A stretch of DNA of 32,000 nucleotides from Candidatus Nitrosocaldus sp. (GCA_025054855.1 JANWZS010000004.1:22966-54965); one strand, 5' to 3'. Shown: positions 17,352 to 25,919, counted from the stretch's first letter. Notes: generated from the sequence alone by a model not told the origin. Numbers and translations: made by a program.

Positions 17352-17385
17352 ACATACATACATACATACATGCATACATACATAC
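17352..17385. repeat. (ACAT)5-GCAT-(ACAT)2-AC: a 34-nt perfectly alternating purine-pyrimidine tract
   Basis: Read directly from the sequence. The single interruption (GCAT) preserves the R-Y alternation. The tract lies in a convergent intergenic spacer. Confidence 0.95.
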
Positions 17386-17488: not shown

Positions 17489-17527
17489 CCCTCATCCCTC
17501 CCTCACCCCCTACCTATCCCCTAACCC
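17489..17527 (-). other. G-quadruplex motif on the minus (PAC2 sense) strand, i-motif pattern on the plus strand
   Basis: The plus strand has six C-runs of 3-5 nt separated by loops of 4, 1, 3, 7 and 3 nt (CCCtcatCCCtCCCtcaCCCCCtacctatCCCCtaaCCC). The motif straddles the PAC2 stop codon (17521-17523). Confidence 0.6.
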
Positions 17528-18234
17528 TCCTCTCCGCCTTCCTCCTCCCTCCTCCTAGCAAGGCTCTCATCTACACCCTCTGCAAGCCTCTCAAGCTCAT
17601 CGAGGCTACCGAACCTTAGGTATGTGAGCCTCTCGAGTGCCTCTACTATGCCCTTGGCTGCTCTATACTGTGGTATCCTGGGATCATCTATCTCACCGTA
17701 GAGCCCTATACCGTTTATGCCGTTCATCTTCGCAAAGCCGAGTATGAGGCCATTGAACCCAGTTATGAGCGATGAACCGTGTGTAGGATGGAGCCCAACC
17801 CTCGTTATGCTATCGGTCAAGGCTGGGTTGGTGGTGGTAACGAGGACCCTAGGCCTCTTGCCCACTGCTCTATCAGTCAGGAACGCACCTACTGTGTAGA
17901 TGAACTGCACGGAGTACATCTTTGCAACATCTATAACATCCTGGCATAGCATGTAGAGGTCGCTACTAGACTCTGGCTGACCAACGGAGCCCCCAAATAG
18001 TATGATCCTCTCAGCGTACCTATACTCCCACATCACCTGCTCAAACTCTATGTACCCTCCCTTATCGACTACGTATGGTGGGTAATGTGCATACACAACC
18101 CTGAACGGCCTTGTGTTGAGCCTCTTGTTGATGAAGTCTATCACTATGCTCCCCACATTGCCCATATCCTGCATCGCTGCTATCATTATCGGGCTACTAC
18201 CAACATCTGGCTCTAGAAGCTTCTCAAAGTGCAT
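17521..18234 (-). CDS. PAC2-family proteasome assembly chaperone (PbaA/PbaB-like)
   Basis: IMIAAMQDMGNVGSIVIDFI... and GLHPTHGSSLITGFNGLILGFAKMNGINGIGLYGEI match the archaeal PAC2/COG1938 pattern. It has an acidic C-terminal tail, RRREEEGGEEG. Confidence 0.8.
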   Translation of the reverse strand: MHFEKLLEPDVGSSPIMIAAMQDMGNVGSIVIDFINKRLNTRPFRVVYAHYPPYVVDKGGYIEFEQVMWEYRYAERIILFGGSVGQPESSSDLYMLCQDVIDVAKMYSVQFIYTVGAFLTDRAVGKRPRVLVTTTNPALTDSITRVGLHPTHGSSLITGFNGLILGFAKMNGINGIGLYGEIDDPRIPQYRAAKGIVEALERLTYLRFGSLDELERLAEGVDESLARRREEEGGEEG

Positions 18235-18322
18235 AGGTTAACTCTGTATATGCGAATAATAACTCTTCCTGTTACTTCATACTCCCAACGCATCCATATT
18301 GCTAACACAGCAAGCAAGCATG

Positions 18323-19147
18323 CTAAGTGCCCAACTCCATGCTCATGAACTCGAGTATATTCCTCATCCTCAGGCAGTCGAGCTCCAGCAGAGGGGACTC
18401 GCATATTAAGGTTATACTCAATCCCCTCCTGACTATCTCAAGCGCTAACGGCTCGAACTGTGGCTCCCCTATGGGCCTATGGACATCGACATACCTGTAA
18501 CCTTTCCTTGCCAGCCCTGTAAAGTGGGCATTTATGTACTCCAATCCAGAGTCCAGAAGCCTATCTATTATATGCGCATAGTCTATCCTTCCATCGTTCC
18601 TAGCGAATATATGCGCAAAGTCTACATACGGCCTGACCCAGCCATTAAGATCCTTGTAGAGTTTCAGTACCTCATCCAGTGTACCGAACTGGTTCCTCCT
18701 TGCCATGGTCTCTGCTCCAAGCCTGACGTGCCTTGTACCCATGCTCCTCATCTCATCCACTATCGCCTCGTAGCCTGCTCTAACCATGGCATACGCCTCC
18801 TCCCTGCTCCTCCTCCCGTAGAATGCAGAGTGTATGGCGATTATATCTGCACGCATCGCTTCACCGACCTCAACACACTCGAGTATCCTACGCTTAGACC
18901 TCCTCACTACACCAGCATCCTCGGAGCAGAGGTTTATGTAGTAGGGCGCATGGATGGACAACCTTATATCCAGCTCCTCTGCCATATCCCCGAGAGCCCT
19001 ACCCTCCTCCCTGCCAAGATATACGCCATGGACAAAGTCAAGTTCTAGGGCGTTGAGCCCAAGCTCGTTAAGCCTCCTCAGACCAGCCTCCAGTCCATGA
19101 CCCCTACTCGAGACAGGGAGGCCTTGAGTTCCTATACGTACTCTCAT
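18323..19147 (-). CDS. nfo: Endonuclease IV-like TIM-barrel protein (AP endonuclease family 2)
   Basis: LSIHAPYYINLCS resembles Nfo signature 1, H.pYliN. LGAETMARRNQFGT resembles signature 2. YVDFAHIFARND resembles signature 3, lDtcH.fa.G. Confidence 0.7.
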   Translation of the reverse strand: MRVRIGTQGLPVSSRGHGLEAGLRRLNELGLNALELDFVHGVYLGREEGRALGDMAEELDIRLSIHAPYYINLCSEDAGVVRRSKRRILECVEVGEAMRADIIAIHSAFYGRRSREEAYAMVRAGYEAIVDEMRSMGTRHVRLGAETMARRNQFGTLDEVLKLYKDLNGWVRPYVDFAHIFARNDGRIDYAHIIDRLLDSGLEYINAHFTGLARKGYRYVDVHRPIGEPQFEPLALEIVRRGLSITLICESPLLELDCLRMRNILEFMSMELGT

Positions 19148-19248
19148 CAGTACAGGTAGGTTACTCGCATATATTATGATACCACCCGTGGTACACTAAC
19201 ATACATGCAGATCAGTAGCCCTGCCAGTGTGATGGTATCTCGCCAACC

Positions 19249-19296
19249 CTTCCTCCCTTCCTTCCTCCCTTCCTTCCTCCCTTCTTTCTTTCTTTC
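19249..19296. repeat. Tandem 12-mer (CTTCCTCCCTTC)x3 followed by (TTTC)x3
   Basis: Counted directly: the 12-mers are at 19249-19260, 19261-19272 and 19273-19284, and (TTTC)3 is at 19285-19296. The repeat sits immediately 3' of the stop of the 124-aa ORF (minus strand) and upstream of nfo. Confidence 0.95.
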
Positions 19297-19671
19297 TCAC
19301 CTCATCCCCCCTATCATGCCAGGGGCTTTGGGCATGCTCCTGTACTCCTTCACTATATGCACACCTGGCTCAGCGGTCACAACTACATACTCCCTGTTTG
19401 CATCATCCCTTGGCGAGAGCGATACCTTCTCCCCAGGCTTTATCCTTGGTATGAAGTCCTTGTACGTACCATAATCTACCACGACATTGGTTATATCGTT
19501 CCTCCCAGTGTTGGTGAGGATCACCCTGTATATATCCATGACATCTATCTTGTCCTTGAACGCATCGACATCCAGCGCATAATCCTGGTTGGAGTAGGGC
19601 ATGAGCATAAGGAATGCAGTAAGCATGGCAGCACCCATGGCACCTGCACCTGCGATGAGGTAGATCAGCAC
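19297..19671 (-). CDS. Hypothetical N-terminally membrane-anchored protein with a ~95-aa beta-rich (Ig/CARDB-like) domain; neighbour of the AMO locus
   Basis: GTG start. The TM helix is LIYLIAGAGAMGAAMLTAFLMLM. It is followed by RVILTNTGRNDITNVVVDYG...IKPGEKVSLSP, a pattern reminiscent of CARDB-type beta-sandwiches. The overlapping plus-strand ORFs look like shadows. Confidence 0.55.
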   Translation of the reverse strand: MLIYLIAGAGAMGAAMLTAFLMLMPYSNQDYALDVDAFKDKIDVMDIYRVILTNTGRNDITNVVVDYGTYKDFIPRIKPGEKVSLSPRDDANREYVVVTAEPGVHIVKEYRSMPKAPGMIGGMR

Positions 19672-19785
19672 AACATACTATCCACAAGGTTAGATTTAAC
19701 ATTTATCATTCCCTAGCATACATGCTACCATATTACACCTGATCCGACCATTATAGTTATATTTAAGTTAGTTTTAGTATATGTG

Positions 19786-19983
19786 ATGATGAAGAACTAC
19801 AGCATGCTTGCGGTACTGGCCATACTGGCCCTTGCAGCAGTAGCAGCAGTCATGCCAAGTGCGTATGCACAGACCTGGGGTAGACCCGACTCTATGATCA
19901 TTGCAGGACTACCGCTGATAGTCGGCCTAGGCACTGGTATAGTGTACTTCATAGTGATATCTGCAAGAAGGTCCAAGAAGTAG
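19786..19983 (+). CDS. Hypothetical small secreted/single-pass membrane protein (65 aa); neighbour of the AMO locus
   Basis: It has a Sec-type signal peptide (MMKNYSMLAVLAILALAAVAAVMPSAYA-Q), a 7-aa linker, a Gly-rich TM (MIIAGLPLIVGLGTGIVYFIVI) and a basic tail (SARRSKK). A TATA-like TATATTTAAG lies 18 nt upstream and an oligo-T run lies downstream. Confidence 0.5.
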   Translation: MMKNYSMLAVLAILALAAVAAVMPSAYAQTWGRPDSMIIAGLPLIVGLGTGIVYFIVISARRSKK

Positions 19984-19992
19984 ATCCTATAT

Positions 19993-20017
19993 CTCTTCTT
20001 CTTTTCTTATTTTGTTT
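19993..20017 (+). terminator. Oligo-T/pyrimidine-rich terminator-like tract after the 65-aa ORF
   Basis: CTCTTCTTCTTTTCTTATTTTGTTT begins 10 nt after the stop codon. Archaeal termination typically occurs at oligo-T runs. Confidence 0.45.
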
Positions 20018-20102
20018 ACTCAATGGCTATATGTACACATTGTACATGTGTATGGTAGCCTATGATGGTATGCAAGATCACTTTTTGCATAACAACCAAC
20101 TG

Positions 20103-20114
20103 AAATAACAAAAA
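20103..20114 (-). terminator. Oligo-T terminator-like tract after amoA
   Basis: The minus strand reads TTTTTGTTATTT starting 17 nt after the amoA TAA. Confidence 0.45.
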
Positions 20115-20130
20115 GATTGTGGGTATGTGT

Positions 20131-20784
20131 TTAGTCCCACTTGCTCCAGGCAGCGGCCCACCTGTACGTCCATGTGTTCAGCTTTGCACCCAAGGCAGCC
20201 ATCGGTACACTTATAACCGCACTTATACCTGCTGCCAACGCCACTGGACTGTTGTAGAACTTGCCCACCTGAGGCTCTATCGGCGTTAGGTATGCTGGGA
20301 GCGTTGGTCTAGGATACTTGAATGCCATCTCTAGTGGATCATGTACAGTTAGCAGGTTTATCATGTTGAAGAGTGGCATGGACATGCCTACCAGGGAGCC
20401 TCCTATCAGTATAGCTGCATGCTTGTTCCTCCTTGTTGCCCAGTATGATAGGTCGAGGAGCATGGCACTCGGTATCCAGACTGGGACGATCATGAAGTCG
20501 TATGGATAGCCTAAGCCTCCTATCCAGGCCCACTTTGCAACCCAGGTGTATATGGTCATTATTGTAGCGTAGTACGTTGCTGTACCAGGCACTCCTGTGA
20601 ATAGCATGTAGTAGATGGCACCAACCACGAGCATGGTTGCCTGGCTAAGGTTGAAGATCACGAAGGAGGTCCACATCCAGTCGGAGTAGAATATGTAGTC
20701 TCCAGCGTTGATGGTCAGCAGCGTCGAGTTCACCGCAACTACCACTATGAACAGGTAGTGTATTGTGCGTCTAATCCAGACCAT
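20131..20784 (-). CDS. amoA: Ammonia monooxygenase subunit A, archaeal type
   Basis: 217 aa. MVWIRRTIHYLFIVVVAVNSTLLTINAGDYIFYSDW...MLFTGVPGTATYYATIMTIYTWVAK...YPYDFMIVPVWIPSAMLLDLSYWATRRNKH...MAFKYPRPTLP...PIEPQVGKFYNSPVA is near-identical in pattern to thaumarchaeal AmoA sequences I know. Confidence 0.97.
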   Translation of the reverse strand: MVWIRRTIHYLFIVVVAVNSTLLTINAGDYIFYSDWMWTSFVIFNLSQATMLVVGAIYYMLFTGVPGTATYYATIMTIYTWVAKWAWIGGLGYPYDFMIVPVWIPSAMLLDLSYWATRRNKHAAILIGGSLVGMSMPLFNMINLLTVHDPLEMAFKYPRPTLPAYLTPIEPQVGKFYNSPVALAAGISAVISVPMAALGAKLNTWTYRWAAAWSKWD

Positions 20785-20804
20785 TAGAATAGTGTACTAT
20801 GTCC

Positions 20805-20816
20805 ATATATATAAAA
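20805..20816 (-). promoter_or_regulatory. TATA-box-like element for amoA
   Basis: The minus strand reads TTTTATATATAT and ends 20 nt upstream of the amoA ATG. This implies a leaderless or very short-leader mRNA. Confidence 0.5.
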
Positions 20817-20849
20817 CTTACTCCAGGTTAGTGCTAATAAATTAGTAGA

Positions 20850-20865
20850 ATAAAAATAAAATTAA
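20850..20865 (-). terminator. Oligo-T terminator-like tract after amoX
   Basis: The minus strand reads AATTTTATTTTTATTC shortly after the amoX TAG. Confidence 0.4.
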
Positions 20866-20880
20866 GAAATATTTATAATT

Positions 20881-21141
20881 CTATGGGATGGCTGGCTTCT
20901 CCATGGCAACTTTCCAGATGAAGATGAATCCAAAGGCAATGATCACGGTCAGCACGGTCAGCGCATACATCCCAGAGCTGAATGGGTATGCCCATGAATA
21001 GTATGTGAACCCTACCCAGACACCAAATGCTGTTGCTGCCCACGCCATTATCGCTCCGATTATGTACAGACCCTTCATGTGCTCAGTCCTCTTGCCAATC
21101 ATCCTCTCTATCTCGTCCTTGGGCGCCTCCTTCTTCGACAT
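20881..21141 (-). CDS. amoX: AmoX (small 2-TM protein encoded between amoA and amoC in ammonia-oxidising archaea)
   Basis: Its position between amoC and amoA matches the conserved AOA arrangement. It has two TM helices (LYIIGAIMAWAATAFGVWVGF and MYALTVLTVIIAFGFIFIW). I prefer the ATG at 21141 (MSKKEAPKDE...), because CTTTAATAA lies 23 nt upstream. The track ORF extends to 21165. Confidence 0.8.
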   Translation of the reverse strand: MSKKEAPKDEIERMIGKRTEHMKGLYIIGAIMAWAATAFGVWVGFTYYSWAYPFSSGMYALTVLTVIIAFGFIFIWKVAMEKPAIP

Positions 21142-21164
21142 TAAAGAATAATGAAACGAATGCA

Positions 21165-21173
21165 TTATTAAAG
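21165..21173 (-). promoter_or_regulatory. TATA-box-like element for amoX
   Basis: The minus strand reads CTTTAATAA, about 23 nt upstream of the ATG at 21141. Confidence 0.45.
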
Positions 21174-21197
21174 TTTACTTTTGATCTGACAAGGGGT

Positions 21198-21214
21198 AAC
21201 AAAAAAAGAAAAGG
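21198..21214 (-). terminator. Oligo-T terminator-like tract after amoC
   Basis: The minus strand reads CCTTTTCTTTTTTTGT, about 65 nt after the amoC TAA and just upstream of the amoX TATA. Confidence 0.45.
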
Positions 21215-21277
21215 AGTTGCCCATCAGGGCGGTTGCAATTTGTTTACCTTGCTTGCTACGCCTTCTGCTTATGGTAC

Positions 21278-21841
21278 TTATGGTATGCTCCTGCTGTACA
21301 GCTTGCCCTCCAGAGCGAGCTTGTACATCTCTGCAACGTATGGGTTGCTTGGCGGCGTCTCCATCCCGAGCTCTACCATCCTCACGTACAGCCTGACCAC
21401 GTAGGCTAGTGCACCTATGAATGCCACGACGACACCCATGTTGAATGACCAGTGGTTGGGTACTGCGAATACCTCCTCCACGAACCAGAAGTGCCACATC
21501 TCGTTTATACCTATGGTGAACATGGTACCTAGGTAGCCTATGATGGTCATCTTTATACCAGTGTTGACGGTGTTGTTTGGACCCCTCATCAGTGGCACCC
21601 TTCTGTCATATATCATTATTGCACCCCAGCCTAGTGGTAGCGCAACGAAGTGGGAGTAGAGCCACCAGTGCGCTGGTGTGAATGCACTGTCCCTTATACT
21701 GGTCTGGTGCAGTGAGCCGTCGACGAAGTTGTCAACCTCAACGCTCGCTGCGACTGAGCCCATCACTATGACCATTATCAGTATCTTCTTCAGCCTCTGC
21801 ATCTCAACCTCCTTTGGTAGTAGTGCTGGCATCTGAGCCAT
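21278..21841 (-). CDS. amoC: Ammonia monooxygenase subunit C, archaeal type
   Basis: 187 aa. WWLYSHFVALPLGWG...GINEMWHFWFVEEVFAVPNHWSF keeps the His-x12-His spacing and the preceding acidic/amide residue of the AmoC/PmoC metal site. The overall pattern is that of thaumarchaeal AmoC. Confidence 0.95.
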   Translation of the reverse strand: MAQMPALLPKEVEMQRLKKILIMVIVMGSVAASVEVDNFVDGSLHQTSIRDSAFTPAHWWLYSHFVALPLGWGAIMIYDRRVPLMRGPNNTVNTGIKMTIIGYLGTMFTIGINEMWHFWFVEEVFAVPNHWSFNMGVVVAFIGALAYVVRLYVRMVELGMETPPSNPYVAEMYKLALEGKLYSRSIP

Positions 21842-21870
21842 ACCGCTTCATCCTCTGCTACTCATGAGGA

Positions 21871-21881
21871 GTATATCTATC
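21871..21881 (-). promoter_or_regulatory. Possible TATA-like element for amoC
   Basis: The minus strand reads GATAGATATAC, ending about 29 nt upstream of the amoC ATG. It is weaker than the other amo TATA candidates. Confidence 0.3.
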
Positions 21882-21945
21882 TACTGATGTAAGATATCGA
21901 ATCAGTTCTAGAGATATCATCATATCATTCCCATTTAAGACAATT

Positions 21946-22026
21946 AATAATCGAAAATAGACTATACCTTTCTAAATAATCGATCCATGTTATGATGAAT
22001 CGATTTGATTAACACTGAAATCAAAT
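21946..22026. promoter_or_regulatory. Candidate operator array in the amoC/amoB divergent region: AATAATCGA x2, ATGAATCGA, and an 8-bp inverted repeat
   Basis: The exact 9-mer AATAATCGA occurs at 21946-21954 and 21975-21983. A related GATGAATCGAT is at 21994-22004, containing the palindrome AATCGATT at 21998-22005. The inverted repeat ATTTGATT(n8)AATCAAAT is at 22003-22026. Confidence 0.35.
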
Positions 22027-22110
22027 ATATTCGAGCCATCATCGGATTTATTGTTTATAAGTCTGATGTGAGATCATTCTATATATAAACCTAGAAGGGG
22101 ACTGAAATGT

Positions 22111-22122
22111 AAAAATATATAT
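22111..22122 (+). promoter_or_regulatory. TATA-box-like element for amoB
   Basis: AAAAATATATAT ends 24 nt upstream of the amoB ATG (22147). Confidence 0.5.
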
Positions 22123-22146
22123 CTGTGTTAGTACAAGATTCTAATA

Positions 22147-22776
22147 ATGAAGGTAACGCATGTAGCATTGCTGACAGCAGTGGCAGTGGTGCTGGTACTC
22201 GGCTCATTTGCGCCATTGATGAAGGATGCGTTTGCACACGGTGTCCAGGCACAGCTGCAGAGCAGGTTCGTAAAGATAGAGGATGAGACGTTCTCAACGT
22301 TCAGGGTAATAACCAAGCAGGAGTATGCAAACAGGACAGGTCTAACGCTGGAGCAAGTCGATGCGATGGGCTGTGACCCAAGGAGGGGAGACATACTGAT
22401 AGTAACTGGTAGACTTGTAAGCCAGGTCAACAAGGAGCTGAGGGCATGGATATCCCTCTTCAACGAGTCATCTAACGCTGGCAATAGGTGGGAGTTCATA
22501 TCAAGGGAGCCACCAGGTAACGTCTTCGATATACCTCCAGGCGGGGAGGTCCCATACAGGTTATGTGTCTCTGCACTTGAGCCTGGTACATACCATACCC
22601 ATACCCAGCTGAACGTGGCTACTGTTGGTCCAGGTCTCGGTCCAGGGGCAACAGTGGTGGTAGAGGGCGAGCCAACCATGAAGCCTATGTCAGTAGGCAA
22701 CATAGCATACCAGACCATACTGATAGCAATAGGCCTAGCGATATCATTCGCAACAAGACCATGGCAGGTCATATAG
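22147..22776 (+). CDS. amoB: Ammonia monooxygenase subunit B, archaeal type (single cupredoxin domain plus C-terminal TM)
   Basis: The signal peptide ends AFA|HGVQAQLQSRF, which exposes an N-terminal His as in the PmoB/AmoB CuB site. The H-x-H motif is in EPGTYHTHTQLNVATVGPGLGPG. The C-terminal TM is IAYQTILIAIGLAISFA. Confidence 0.95.
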   Translation: MKVTHVALLTAVAVVLVLGSFAPLMKDAFAHGVQAQLQSRFVKIEDETFSTFRVITKQEYANRTGLTLEQVDAMGCDPRRGDILIVTGRLVSQVNKELRAWISLFNESSNAGNRWEFISREPPGNVFDIPPGGEVPYRLCVSALEPGTYHTHTQLNVATVGPGLGPGATVVVEGEPTMKPMSVGNIAYQTILIAIGLAISFATRPWQVI

Positions 22777-22795
22777 CAGAGTAACGACCCACCAA

Positions 22796-22810
22796 TCTTT
22801 CTTTTGTTTG
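22796..22810 (+). terminator. Oligo-T terminator-like tract after amoB
   Basis: TCTTTCTTTTGTTTG begins 20 nt after the amoB TAG. Confidence 0.45.
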
Positions 22811-22960
22811 GCCTATCTGATCTAACTGCACATACTATGTGGGGAAGGGATTGAGATAATGTATGTATGCTGGTACAGTCAGATCATGATGTAGAGCATG
22901 CAATCATATACTCTCTTCTACTAATCTGTAATCATATAAAAAAGGAGATGTTAGCTGGGG

Positions 22961-23230
22961 TTACCTTCTCCTCTCCTCTGGCAGTAGACCTATACCCTCC
23001 CTCTCGTAGTACCTCTCCAACTCCTGCACCCATGTCTCCCTTGCCGTACCGCCTATACCCTTGTGTCTTATCCAGTACGCTATAACGCTCAGTAGGAATA
23101 TGCCGAACATCATTGTGCCGAATATGTAGATCATCACATCGTAGAAGAGTGGGTCATATGCTGGGCCTATCTGCAGCACTATGCTCTTTATACCCATAGC
23201 CAGCGTTGCAATATCCATTGGTATAATCAT
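22961..23230 (-). CDS. Hypothetical small single-pass membrane protein (85-89 aa) next to amoB; candidate AMO accessory subunit
   Basis: It has one strong TM (VMIYIFGTMMFGIFLLSVIAYWI) and a charged C-terminal tail (RHKGIGGTARETWVQELERYYEREGIGLLPEERRR). Possible ATG starts are 23230 and 23218, and TATA-like elements lie upstream of both. A T6 run follows the stop. Confidence 0.55.
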   Translation of the reverse strand: MIIPMDIATLAMGIKSIVLQIGPAYDPLFYDVMIYIFGTMMFGIFLLSVIAYWIRHKGIGGTARETWVQELERYYEREGIGLLPEERRR

Positions 23231-23461
23231 CGAACACCATGAATATATACATTTCCGTTTGGCCTTATAAAAAATTTAGCCGCTTTACTATACTTACGCA
23301 TCATTAGTCCATCTCACTACTGTATCACACCAATTCCATAAATACCATAGATAATGCAATCATATTATACACTATGCAGATGCGTATATACGTACAGGAA
23401 TAATGATAGGTAGAGCTATGTATGGAAGAGATCAAACAAAAAAGGAAGTGTGTAGGTTCTG

Positions 23462-23833
23462 CTACGCACTCTTCTGTATCTTTGGCTTCCTCAGTGCCAT
23501 TGCGAAGAATGCTGCGGAGATGCCTCCAAATATCGCTCCAAGGGCAGCAACATATATGCCGAGTTCACCGAACGTCTGTGCTACCATGGATGTACCAGAA
23601 CCATACGCACCCTCCTGCTGTGCTGTTGTCAGCCTCTTCTTTGCCAGTATGGAGTGCTGTGTGCATGCGAACTCTGGTATGCCAAGTTGCTTGCACTCCT
23701 CCAACTGCTCTGGCGTAGCAGTTATATCACCACCAACCTCACCATACAGCTGCGCCATCGCTACGGAACCGCTCCCTACCCACATTGCAATTACTCCAGC
23801 CACCACCACCGCTAGAAGAGCAAACTTATTCAT
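23462..23833 (-). CDS. Hypothetical secreted, C-terminally membrane-anchored protein (123 aa) near amoB; candidate AMO accessory subunit
   Basis: It has a signal peptide (MNKFALLAVVVAGVIAMWVGSGSVAMA-Q). The ~65-aa ectodomain contains two Cys (EECKQLGIPEFACTQ). The protein ends with a Gly-rich TM (LGIYVAALGAIFGGISAAFFAMAL) and a basic tail (RKPKIQKSA). A TATA-like ATTATATAC lies 23 nt upstream, and CCTTTTTTGTTTG follows the stop. Confidence 0.6.
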   Translation of the reverse strand: MNKFALLAVVVAGVIAMWVGSGSVAMAQLYGEVGGDITATPEQLEECKQLGIPEFACTQHSILAKKRLTTAQQEGAYGSGTSMVAQTFGELGIYVAALGAIFGGISAAFFAMALRKPKIQKSA

Positions 23834-23930: not shown

Positions 23931-24374
23931 ATGGCTAGGATACATGCCCATAGGAAGGGCAAGTCACACTCAACGAGACCCATGCAGATCAATACTCCAT
24001 GGGTCAGCATGAGCAAGGAGGAGATAATCAACCTGATAGTGAGCATGGCGAAGGATGGACTCAAGCCCAGCGAGATAGGTCTGAGGCTTAGAGATGAGTA
24101 CGGTATACCTCTGGTCAAGAGGATCATAGGCAAGTCCATCACAGAGGTTCTGGAGGAGCATGGCATAAAGGCTCTGCCAGAGGACCTTAGCAACATGCTT
24201 GAGAAGGCCATCAGGCTTCAGAAGCACCTCAGTGTGCATAGGAGCGATAGCAACAACGTACGCTCCCTGGAGCTGATAGAGGCCAAGATACACAGGCTTG
24301 CAAAGTACTACAAGAGGGAGGGCAAGATACCCCAGGAGTGGAGGTACAAGGCTGTGATAGCAAGCCTTGAGTGA
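23931..24374 (+). CDS. rps15: 30S ribosomal protein S15 (uS15; S13e type)
   Basis: MARIHAHRKGKSHSTRP...LRLRDEYGIP...HLSVHRSDSNNVRSLELIEAKIHRLAKYY is the canonical archaeal uS15 pattern. Confidence 0.95.
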   Translation: MARIHAHRKGKSHSTRPMQINTPWVSMSKEEIINLIVSMAKDGLKPSEIGLRLRDEYGIPLVKRIIGKSITEVLEEHGIKALPEDLSNMLEKAIRLQKHLSVHRSDSNNVRSLELIEAKIHRLAKYYKREGKIPQEWRYKAVIASLE

Positions 24375-24395: not shown

Positions 24396-25919
24396 ATGAG
24401 CAGCACCAGCCTTAACCTGGATTCATTCATGCATAACCTCGCAGGGAGGGTACTCGATGCCGTAGCCTCAAGGAAGAGGATCATGGTCGTGACGCACTCC
24501 GATGCAGATGGCCTAGTCTCCGGTAGCATAATAGCCAAGGCAGTGATGAGGAAGGGAGGCAGGTGCCTTGTAAGAGTGGTTAGTGATCTCAACCCCAACG
24601 TGCTCAGGAAGGTTGCTGGCGAAGGGCATGACCTCTACATAATCTCTGACATGGGTGCTGGTCTGGCAAGGATGATAGATGAGCATATGGGGGGCAGGGA
24701 GTGGATGGTCATAGACCATCACCAACTCCCAGAGGATGAGATGAATGATGAGAGGGTATGCAATGCGTGGAAGTTCGGTATAGATGGAGGGGTAGAGGCA
24801 TGTGCTGGTACTATGGCGTACATGTTCGCTTCCGCACTCGATGAGTCCAACAGGGATCTATCAGCGCTGGCAGTTGTGGCTATGGTTGCGGATAGGCAGG
24901 ATCAGGGCGAGAGGAAGTCCCTGCTAGGCTTGAATGCTGAAGTCGCCAATACCGCCAGAGACCTTGGGCTGTTGAGCATAGATCTCGATCTCATGCTGGT
25001 TGGGAGGGAGACTAGGGCAGTGCATGAGGCGCTGGCATACACCTCATACCCTTACATAGATGGACTTACATGGAACGTTGACTCGTGCTACTCCCTACTC
25101 AACTCCACAGGCTTGAGACTCAAGGAGGATGGTAGATGGCGTACACTTGCAGAGATGAGCAGTGAGGAGAAGAGCAAGATAGTCGAGGCCATAGCCATCT
25201 TCTCCTCTTCCTCTTCCTCTTCCTCTTCCTCTTCCTCTTCCTCTCATTCCTATTCCTCCTCACAATCACCAAGTTCAGGCAAGGATGCAAACATGATAGT
25301 GGATGAGTTGATAGGCCATGTGTACACACTGCTGAGGGAGGATAGGAGGAGTATGCTCAGGGATGCCAGGGAGTTCAGCCTCATGCTCAACGCATGCGCC
25401 AGGATAAGGAGATCTGGTGTAGGCATCGCCATATGCTTGGGCGACAGGAGTGCCATGCTCATGGAGGGTGAGATGATAGTGAATGAGTACAGGAGGATGC
25501 TCAGGGGTTACATAAGCACCGTGATGAGCGATCGATGGCGAGTGATGGATGATGGTCTGCTAGCCGTAATAAACGGGGATAACCTAATAGCACAGGATAT
25601 GCTTGGGGCTGTATCCTCACTGCTCAGCGGGTCCCAAGCCTTCCAAGGCAGGGTTATAGTCGTGAGGACCAGGGCTGATGACGGTACATACAAGTTCTCC
25701 TGCAGGAAGGGTCTCAACTGCAGCATAGATGTGAACCTTGGCATACTCATGCGTGAATGCTCCAGCAGATGCAATGGTGTTGGGGGAGGGCATGGTGCTG
25801 CTGCTGGTGCAAGGATAGGTGCGGATATGCTGGATGAGTTCATAAGGTGCATCAAGGAGGGTGTACATGGAGCAAGGGATGCTCAGGGTTCGGGTGACTA
25901 TAAGGATAAGGATGGATGA
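24396..25919 (+). CDS. RecJ/Cdc45-like DHH-family phosphoesterase with a poly-Ser insertion
   Basis: The DHH motifs are VVTHSDADGLVSGS, ISDMG, VIDHHQ and GGGHGAAAG (DHHA1). Adjacency to rps15 is a common archaeal neighbourhood for RecJ/Cdc45-like genes. The insertion is S14-HSYSSSQSPSSG. Confidence 0.85.
   Translation: MSSTSLNLDSFMHNLAGRVLDAVASRKRIMVVTHSDADGLVSGSIIAKAVMRKGGRCLVRVVSDLNPNVLRKVAGEGHDLYIISDMGAGLARMIDEHMGGREWMVIDHHQLPEDEMNDERVCNAWKFGIDGGVEACAGTMAYMFASALDESNRDLSALAVVAMVADRQDQGERKSLLGLNAEVANTARDLGLLSIDLDLMLVGRETRAVHEALAYTSYPYIDGLTWNVDSCYSLLNSTGLRLKEDGRWRTLAEMSSEEKSKIVEAIAIFSSSSSSSSSSSSSSHSYSSSQSPSSGKDANMIVDELIGHVYTLLREDRRSMLRDAREFSLMLNACARIRRSGVGIAICLGDRSAMLMEGEMIVNEYRRMLRGYISTVMSDRWRVMDDGLLAVINGDNLIAQDMLGAVSSLLSGSQAFQGRVIVVRTRADDGTYKFSCRKGLNCSIDVNLGILMRECSSRCNGVGGGHGAAAGARIGADMLDEFIRCIKEGVHGARDAQGSGDYKDKDG
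25203..25244 (+). repeat. In-frame hexanucleotide microsatellite (TCCTCT)7 encoding Ser14 inside the RecJ-like gene
   Basis: I counted 7 perfect units directly in the sequence. The frame was checked against the 24396 start. Confidence 0.95.

Follow-up and report, generated by a model that had tools for sequence, protein, structure and literature searches.

The locus encoding ammonia monooxygenase (AMO) was analysed in a 32,000-nucleotide stretch of DNA from Candidatus Nitrosocaldus sp. (GCA_025054855.1 JANWZS010000004.1:22966-54965), referred to here as the window. The window carries the canonical six-gene amoABCXYZ cluster of a Nitrosocaldus archaeon, which was already known. Four small open reading frames (ORFs) flank amoA, amoX, amoC and amoB; ORF89 corresponds to AmoY and ORF123 to AmoZ, and the remaining two, ORF66 and ORF124, are likely to be a separate pair of genes whose products are not stoichiometric AMO subunits. 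An earlier reading of the sequence (the original prediction) had placed an AMO locus at 19297-23833 with four flanking small ORFs, each with a strong transmembrane segment and/or signal peptide. The ORF scan found all eight genes at these positions, and the hydropathy profiles agreed with the membrane assignments. The features are as follows.

19297-19671, minus strand: ORF124, 124 amino acids (aa).
19672-19782: ORF124/ORF66 divergent promoter region, 111 bp, with two invariant AT-rich blocks.
19783-19983, plus strand: ORF66, 66 aa from a GTG start or, with the ATG at 19786 (the GenBank call), 65 aa.
20131-20784, minus strand: amoA, 217 aa, Pfam Archaeal_AmoA 3e-107.
20881-21165, minus strand: amoX, a 94-aa ORF with two transmembrane helices; translation probably begins at the ATG at 21141, giving an 86-aa product (20881-21141).
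21278-21841, minus strand: amoC, 187 aa, Pfam AmoC 8e-14.
22147-22776, plus strand: amoB, 209 aa, Pfam Monooxygenase_B.
22961-23230, minus strand: ORF89 (amoY), an 89-aa ORF, probably 85 aa from the second ATG at 23218.
23462-23833, minus strand: ORF123 (amoZ), 123 aa.

The order of the cluster in the window was rps15, amoZ amoY, amoB, amoC amoX amoA. An exact-sequence look-up matched the window to JANXDP010000008.1 of the Nitrosocaldus MAG GCA_025058825.1. All four small ORFs are called as genes in that GenBank record (123, 85, 65 and 124 aa), in which AmoX, AmoY and AmoZ carry the label 'hypothetical protein'.

Clustering and synteny of all six amo genes in Nitrosocaldus were described by Hodgskiss et al. 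2023 (ISME J, PMC10030591). In that work amoY and amoZ were named as NVIE_004540 (82 aa) and NVIE_004550 (123 aa) of N. viennensis, where rps15p (NVIE_004560) follows, with homologues Nmar_1506/1507 and NCAV_0488/0486. Dataset S1 of the same paper lists NCAV_0486 (130 aa), NCAV_0488 (AmoY, 85 aa) adjoining amoB NCAV_0489, amoC NCAV_0490, AmoX NCAV_0491 (86 aa) and amoA NCAV_0492 for N. cavascurensis. The window was equal to NCAV_0486-0492 in gene content, order, orientation and the position of rps15 beside amoZ, and the product sizes matched (AmoZ ∼123-130, AmoY 85, AmoB 209, AmoC 187, AmoX 86 and AmoA 217 aa). No substantive difference was found, the window coming from a further species within that genus. 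The published account ends at amoA, and the two genes beyond it are unmentioned (PMC10030591). ORF89 and ORF123 were assigned as AmoY and AmoZ because their order and sizes match the published NCAV and NVIE loci. The expectation of two or more AmoY/AmoZ-class subunits among the four ORFs therefore held, by homology, order and size, for the two on the amoB/rps15 side, and this half of the earlier interpretation is already published for Nitrosocaldus.

Window proteins were searched by tblastn against a comparative set of 39 amoA loci from GTDB species genomes, and homologues of AmoY, AmoZ and AmoX were counted among these loci with iterative searches. ORF89 and ORF123 occupied the interval from amoB to rps15 in Nitrosocaldales, Nitrosomirales, Nitrosopumilales and several Nitrososphaeraceae metagenome-assembled genomes (MAGs). 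Homologues of ORF89 were present at 31 of the 39 loci, in four orders, and homologues of ORF123 occupied the same position at 29. An amoX homologue adjoined amoA at 38 loci. The order amoY-amoZ-rps15 was identical in the window, in N. viennensis (NVIE_004540, NVIE_004550, rps15p NVIE_004560) and in 29 loci.

AmoY proteins are characterised by a length of ∼82-96 aa, one transmembrane segment and a gene beside amoZ, near amoB in compact genomes; ORF89, at 85/89 aa, has this size and position. Hydropathy analysis gave a single central transmembrane helix, and the protein contains the conserved motif QIGPAYDPLFYDVM. Identity to the same-position proteins was 54-70% (tblastn) in all orders of ammonia-oxidising archaea (AOA), and 54-57% to the marine AmoY proteins, which in N. 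maritimus are named AmoF. An alignment of 9 sequences contained 29 invariant columns, including QIGPxxDPLFYDVM. The gene is separated by 185 bp from amoB and by 231 bp from ORF123. The link from ORF89 to the named references NVIE_004540, NCAV_0488 and Nmar_1506 was made by position and size.

ORF123 has the architecture of AmoZ (∼105-130 aa, signal peptide, helix pair, flexible loop, C-terminal transmembrane helix). The signal peptide would be cleaved between VAMA and Q; it is followed by a short two-helix ectodomain with Cys47 and Cys57, a loop, a C-terminal transmembrane helix and a basic tail. A single-sequence AlphaFold2 (AF2) model, of low confidence (predicted local distance difference test, pLDDT, 63), placed helices at 41-50 and 54-60, a disordered loop at 61-79 and the transmembrane helix at 80-114. 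The presence of one Cys in each short ectodomain helix of the model is consistent with the disulfide predicted for AmoZ. The gene adjoins rps15 and amoY, as do NVIE_004550 (123 aa) and NCAV_0486. Alignment with Nitrososphaeraceae and Nitrosopumilales proteins gave 25 invariant columns, and the signal peptide, a GSGT motif and an FGG-containing transmembrane helix were common to ORF123 and its Nitrososphaeraceae and non-marine Nitrosopumilales counterparts. Identity to marine AmoZ, named AmoG in N. maritimus, was just ∼33-46% over partial matches. Both cysteines of the Nitrosocaldus protein lie within a 17-residue insert, ECKQLGIPEFACTQHSI (window 23660-23710, ORF123 residues ∼42-58), that is absent from the aligned Nitrososphaeraceae and Nitrosopumilales AmoZ sequences.

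AmoB matched PDB 4O65, the AmoB domain of Nitrosocaldus yellowstonii, at 1.4e-76; AmoA was 99% identical to the AmoA of Ca. Nitrosocaldus tengchongensis and of archaeon HR04, and AmoC was 99% identical to other Nitrosocaldus AmoC proteins. The short start of AmoX is favoured by the 86-aa length of NCAV_0491 and by a TATA-like box correctly spaced from the second ATG. AmoA had no match in the PDB sequence set, which shows that an archaeal AMO entry from cryo-electron microscopy (cryo-EM) was not in the set searched.

Homologues of AmoY have been placed physically in the AMO complex by blue native polyacrylamide gel electrophoresis (BN-PAGE), cross-linking and cryo-EM (PMC10030591; bioRxiv 10.64898/2026.08.31.748207). 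A September 2026 preprint describes the cryo-EM structure of N. maritimus AMO (PDB 9XJ2) with eight subunits per protomer, in which AmoF (AmoY) pairs with AmoG (AmoZ) in a clamp-like heterodimer that lies between adjacent protomers and holds the trimer together (bioRxiv 10.64898/2026.08.31.748207). With roles taken from the literature, AmoA, AmoB and AmoC of the window would form the copper-dependent catalytic core and AmoX would supply helices completing a bundle like that of bacterial AmoC. AmoY and AmoZ would be single-pass subunits, to which the clamp role would carry over by homology.

Variants of the cluster were observed among the comparative loci. In the Nitrosocaldus-like MAGs L004 (5891-10951), L005 and L006 the AmoA proteins were 96-97% identical to that of the window and the cluster was rearranged, with amoC not between amoB and amoX, amoY and amoZ beyond rps15, and ORF66 still adjoining amoA. 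The Nitrososphaeraceae MAGs L009, L010 and L012 carry DHH-rps15-amoZ-amoY-amoB and amoX-amoA within ∼4 kb, without amoC, in contrast with the general view of scattered amo genes in Nitrososphaeraceae. The preprint reports that accessory AMO subunits such as AmoE vary between lineages and that one chain, AmoH, is unassigned (bioRxiv 10.64898/2026.08.31.748207). N. maritimus AmoE (NmAmoE) is presumably Nmar_1505. An AmoE-like gene lay between amoB and amoY in 18/18 Nitrosopumilales loci that cover the interval. AmoE-like proteins (173-191 aa, one transmembrane segment and a C-terminal domain) were found at this place also in Nitrosotalea and other non-marine Nitrosopumilales (for example L022:7364-7885, L019:7344-7874 and L025:11627-12175), and are thus not limited to marine lineages, contrary to the wording of the preprint. 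Nmar_1504-like proteins were found in marine loci only.

Beyond amoA, ORF66 converges on amoA tail-to-tail and diverges from ORF124. Its 65/66-aa product has a cleavable signal peptide (cleavage between PSAYA and Q), an ectodomain of ∼10 residues, one transmembrane helix and an RRSKK tail. The helix has an invariant P-x3-GL-x2-G face, the P, G, L and G being invariant across the family alignment, and the family motif is [IV]PLIVGLxxGxxY[WF]xxI[ST]ARRS. A profile search of 5.8 billion proteins returned 271 protein clusters, all of 29-98 aa, and wherever a cluster carried a name it belonged to an AOA lineage. ORF66 is a member of an uncharacterised microprotein family that has so far been seen in AOA alone. 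Homology to AmoX, AmoY or AmoZ was rejected, the resemblance being confined to the signal peptides.

A hidden Markov model (HMM) of the C-terminal helix found an ORF66 homologue in almost every non-Nitrososphaeraceae locus with a sufficiently long flank. The homologue adjoins amoA in Nitrosocaldus, Nitrosothermus-like genomes and Nitrosomirales, the order to which SAT137 and DSS1 are assigned (PMC10811736), and in these lineages it is 64-98 aa long with a cleavable signal peptide. The Nitrosopumilales homologues are 29-59 aa long, have no signal peptide and lie at a distance of 4-9 kb from amoA, flanked by a peroxiredoxin-like gene on one side and a CoaD-like gene on the other. The Nitrososphaeraceae loci contained no family member less than 10 kb from amoA. 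Four subtypes could be distinguished: signal peptide, QTWGRPDSM and transmembrane helix in Nitrosocaldus; signal peptide, QELKG...ESLKAY and transmembrane helix in Nitrosomirales; signal peptide, a two-Cys loop QESLCDHNGPTERGKALGIVCHTTQ and transmembrane helix in the Nitrosothermus-like genomes; and the 29-59-aa form without signal peptide in Nitrosopumilales. The predicted final topology was identical in all four, so the family is predicted to have lost or gained its signal peptide between lineages while keeping that topology. Copies were located at window 19783-19983 and at L019:18435-18536, L033:14278-14391, L017:11238-11492 and L048:1292-1543, most copies of the family being unannotated or labelled 'hypothetical'.

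ORF124 comprises an N-terminal transmembrane anchor, seen by hydropathy, and a seven-strand beta-sandwich resembling immunoglobulin (Ig) and CARDB domains (AF2 with 43 sequences, pLDDT 82), which is probably extracytoplasmic, followed by a conserved C-terminal tail, PGMIGGM. Foldseek against the PDB yielded generic Ig-like matches alone, TRAP-beta, ApaG and archaeal pilins among them, and every E value exceeded 1e-3. An exhaustive HMM search returned 157 representative clusters of proteins of ∼110-140 aa with equal architecture and a C-terminal PGM(M/I)G. Members were found in Nitrososphaera, Nitrososphaeraceae, Ca. Nitrosocosmicus arcticus, Ca. Nitrosotalea okcheonensis, Nitrosopumilus sp. 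and TARA marine contigs. The family is uncharacterised and, among its named homologues, has been seen so far in AOA alone. The C-terminus (window 19297-19320; members P0165-P0182) reads PGMIGGM(G/R) or PGMMGS, with GLPGSGR or LPGHH in a subset; this Met-rich motif is not present in all members.

The ORF124 HMM also matches DUF7507/DUF11 repeats in giant proteins, whose repeat units correspond to core residues ∼46-89, and the Nitrosotalea homologue is named 'CARDB domain-containing' in UniRef. ORF124 differs from these proteins in having no Pfam match at E ≤ 1 and in its own C-terminal PGM(M/I)G motif. The label 'FlaF/FlaG family' on one Nitrososphaeraceae cluster is an automatic annotation from one source (JGI). 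An archaeal pilin or FlaF/FlaG identity was rejected since ORF124 has no class III signal peptide, lies outside any archaellum operon and has no Pfam match. A cupredoxin or copper chaperone was likewise rejected: the domain has no conserved His, Cys or Met, the Met-rich tail is not universal, and the Foldseek match to a Cu(I) chaperone was weak (template modelling score, TM-score, 0.29). Homology to NmAmoE or Nmar_1504 was also rejected, with hhalign probabilities of 0.2% (AmoE-like) and 0.1% (Nmar_1504-like). NmAmoE resembles ORF124 in gross topology (N-terminal transmembrane helix and extracytoplasmic beta-rich domain) and its gene likewise neighbours an amo gene, but ORF124 lies on another side of the cluster and its ectodomain is shorter (95 vs ∼140 aa), and the two coexist in Nitrosopumilales. 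Nmar_1504 is a soluble beta-barrel with no sequence or profile similarity to ORF124.

Nitrosocaldus, the Nitrosothermus-like genomes and some of the Nitrosomirales carry an ORF124 homologue adjoining the amoA region. A second Nitrosocaldus paralogue lies away from amo, beside SIMPL/PadR genes. On a 2.6-Mb Nitrosomirales-like contig that also carries an ORF66 homologue, the ORF124 homologue lies beside an Iso_dh gene, far from amo; in closely related assemblies the ORF66 homologue adjoins amoA. In neither the Nitrosopumilales nor the Nitrososphaeraceae loci did a family member lie within 10 kb of amoA, though the family exists in both groups.

The four small ORFs are real genes, each subject to strong purifying selection. 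In comparisons of the window with five other Nitrosocaldus loci the ratio of non-synonymous to synonymous substitution rates (dN/dS) was 0.05-0.07 for ORF124, 0.04-0.09 for ORF66, 0-0.02 for ORF89 and 0.05-0.09 for ORF123, with dS from 0.3 to 1.2. Synonymous divergence was also compared by gene class among Nitrosocaldus species, setting window 20131-23833 against the flanks 17521-19147 and 23931-24374. Values were 0.3-0.7 for amoC, amoX, amoY and amoZ, 0.6-0.9 for amoA, amoB and ORF66, and 0.7-1.5 for the nfo-like, PAC2 and S15 flanks together with ORF124, the latter at 0.9-1.2. The lowest class is consistent with constraint on codon usage in very highly expressed genes.

AT-rich TATA-like boxes were present ∼20-36 nt upstream of all four small ORFs, and every gene of the cluster seems to be served by a promoter of its own. 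The boxes of ORF66 and ORF124 stand out as invariant blocks when six Nitrosocaldus sequences are aligned across the shared 111-bp intergenic region: GTTAGATTTAACATTT on the ORF124 side, with an ATCAT extension in 5 of the 6 sequences, and ACCATTATAGTTATATTTAAGTTAGT on the ORF66 side. A palindrome between the two genes, TAGCAT-AC-ATGCTA, was considered as an operator and rejected, as other Nitrosocaldus species do not conserve it. Oligo-T runs were found downstream of ORF66, ORF89 and ORF123; ORF124 has no such run, and the expected place of its terminator, directly 3' of the gene, is taken by a purine-rich (AAGG)n microsatellite, written (CCTT)n at 19248-19296. The original prediction had assigned TATA-like elements at 20-25 nt and oligo-T runs to all four ORFs, of which the TATA-like boxes stand over the wider spacing given above and the oligo-T runs stand for three genes.

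A chance origin or an annotation artefact might be suggested for ORF66 and/or ORF124 by their shortness, by the lack of a database family (ORF66, ORF89, ORF123 and ORF124 gave nothing significant against Pfam, NCBIfam or PDB sequences) and by the GTG start of ORF124. A dN/dS of 0.04-0.09 at a dS of 0.7-1.2, hundreds of homologues with motifs kept across orders, a confident AF2 fold and conserved promoter blocks stand against this, and the probability that remains for it is negligible. It is already refuted by purifying selection and the homologues.

The remaining question is whether ORF66 and ORF124 belong to AMO. As we read the locus, the two would form a separate divergent pair of genes for extracytoplasmic, membrane-anchored proteins of the envelope or pseudo-periplasm, their place beside amoA in the basal Nitrosocaldales and Nitrosomirales being a matter of inherited gene order; ORF66 would use its conserved P-x3-G-x3-G helix face to pack onto another membrane protein. 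In N. cavascurensis five genes lie between amoA (NCAV_0492) and the CPA2 antiporter gene NCAV_0498, and by gene order NCAV_0493 and NCAV_0494 correspond to ORF66 and ORF124. Neither was present in the N. cavascurensis BN-PAGE membrane proteome sheet, which appears complete and contains NCAV_0486, NCAV_0488-0492 and NCAV_0498, with all six Amo subunits at intensity-based absolute quantification (iBAQ) values of 4-9e9. This absence is informative for ORF124, the inferred homologue of which has several good tryptic peptides. The eight-subunit list of N. maritimus AMO contains no single-helix protein of 30-47 aa and no protein with an Ig-like ectodomain (bioRxiv 10.64898/2026.08.31.748207), and the dS of ORF124 (0.9-1.2) is like that of the housekeeping flanks and unlike that of amoC/X/Y/Z. 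The synteny of rps15 and the DHH phosphoesterase gene with the amo cluster is equal to or stronger than that of ORF66; linkage alone therefore cannot carry an argument for AMO membership.

Several observations weigh on the other side. ORF66 yields few tryptic peptides and is nearly undetectable by mass spectrometry after trypsin digestion, so its absence from the proteome says little, and NCAV_0493 and NCAV_0494 were assigned from gene order rather than sequence. The adjacency of ORF66 and amoA is conserved across both basal orders, and in Nitrosothermus-like genomes the ORF124/ORF66 pair adjoins amoX-amoA, inverted as a unit, though amoB, amoC, amoY and amoZ have moved. Both families have been seen in AOA alone so far. 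By analogy with the lineage-specific AmoE and the unassigned AmoH of the preprint, extra Nitrosocaldus-specific AMO components are plausible. In addition, the AOA-exclusive protein NVIE_027260 (UniProt A0A060HVD8; 44 aa, 4.67 kDa) co-migrates with AmoA, AmoB and AmoC6 in BN-PAGE of N. viennensis (PMC10030591). NVIE_027260, a possible Nitrososphaera member of the ORF66 family that a comparison of mass per residue neither favoured nor disfavoured, has no RefSeq tag and was not followed further by the Hodgskiss 2023 authors.

ORF66 might be a genuine, previously unannotated AMO-associated microprotein, which would be an additional helix, substoichiometric or loosely bound, or else a helper in assembly or copper loading; its gene would have lain beside amoA in the AOA ancestor and later been displaced in Nitrosopumilales. 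Convergence on amoA in every Nitrosocaldales and Nitrosomirales locus extending far enough would fit this, as would the persistence of the gene 4-9 kb from amoA in Nitrosopumilales, the AOA origin of all named homologues, a helix face of invariant small residues, as is usual where helices pack together, an AmoZ-like design (signal peptide, short ectodomain, transmembrane helix, basic tail), an intermediate dS like that of amoA and amoB, and the co-migration of NVIE_027260 with AMO in N. viennensis. Set against these are the N. maritimus structure, which lists no such subunit, the position of the Nitrosopumilales gene off amo between peroxiredoxin-like and CoaD-like genes, the Nitrososphaeraceae loci with no member within 10 kb of amoA, the equal synteny of rps15 and the DHH gene without a functional link, and the lack of homology to AmoX, AmoY and AmoZ beyond the signal peptide. 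A count of transmembrane helices (51 per trimer) did not speak for or against an extra helix, as the hydropathy profile left the number of AmoA helices ambiguous. We give an AMO-associated role a small but appreciable chance. The proposal that the family is an ancestral, unannotated AMO partner across AOA, serving as an additional helix or as a factor for assembly or stability and perhaps identical with NVIE_027260, we consider unlikely.

ORF124 might in turn be a lineage-specific accessory subunit, its beta-sandwich docking on the single cupredoxin domain of AmoB either as the counterpart of AmoE/Nmar_1504 or as a substitute for the missing C-terminal AmoB domain. Its NmAmoE-like topology, which combines one transmembrane helix with a C-terminal domain, its place beside amoA in Nitrosocaldus, Nitrosothermus-like genomes and some Nitrosomirales, the lack of AmoE-like and Nmar_1504-like genes at the Nitrosocaldus locus, and the stress laid by the preprint on variation of accessory subunits between lineages would agree with this. 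The family occurs, however, unlinked to amo, in Nitrosopumilus, Nitrosotalea, Nitrososphaera and Nitrosocosmicus, which have accessory sets of their own, and a second Nitrosocaldus paralogue lies elsewhere in the genome. The inferred NCAV_0494 is not in the BN-PAGE proteome despite its good tryptic peptides, the domain lacks conserved His, Cys or Met ligands, neither fold nor profile ties it to cupredoxins, AmoB, AmoE or Nmar_1504, and dS is like that of the housekeeping flanks. An accessory role for ORF124 is thus highly improbable.

The pair is therefore best kept apart from the amoABCXYZ cluster: AMO association is not supported for ORF124, and for ORF66 it is unsupported but keeps a small chance. 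The original prediction had counted both as further AMO components in a six- to eight-gene supercluster. For ORF124 the paralogues off amo, the lack of similarity to AmoE and Nmar_1504 and the BN-PAGE absence speak against this; for ORF66 it was not supported because the gene adjoins amoA in two basal sister orders only and housekeeping genes are equally syntenic. The same prediction had proposed to abandon the idea if no homologues restricted to ammonia oxidisers were found; every named homologue of the ORF66 and ORF124 families came from an ammonia-oxidising lineage, and for this reason the two families, that of ORF66 above all, may have an AMO-related role.

The block had been described as bounded by unrelated housekeeping genes, nfo-like on one side and rps15 on the other. 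Ribosomal protein S15 was confirmed beside amoZ (189.5 bits vs a cut-off of 154); the protein beside ORF124 is an AP_endonuc_2 TIM-barrel protein that is just weakly Nfo-like and falls under the NCBIfam cut-offs. Rfam and tRNA scans of the window gave no matches. A (TCCTCT)7 microsatellite at 25203-25244 encodes a poly-Ser run within the DHH/DHHA1 protein, and an (ACAT)8 microsatellite lies near 17.35 kb (17352-17385).

The main feature of the window adds another Nitrosocaldus example of the published cluster, and its practical value lies in the correct annotation of AmoX, AmoY and AmoZ. Two uncharacterised protein families, those of ORF66 and ORF124, emerged from the analysis, both seen so far only in AOA. 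The ORF66 microprotein, which automatic annotation mostly misses, faces amoA tail-to-tail in the two AOA orders that are most basal and is most likely not part of the AMO enzyme. The list of archaeal AMO subunits has nevertheless grown from three to eight in three years, with one chain still unassigned, which makes ORF66 worth a look.

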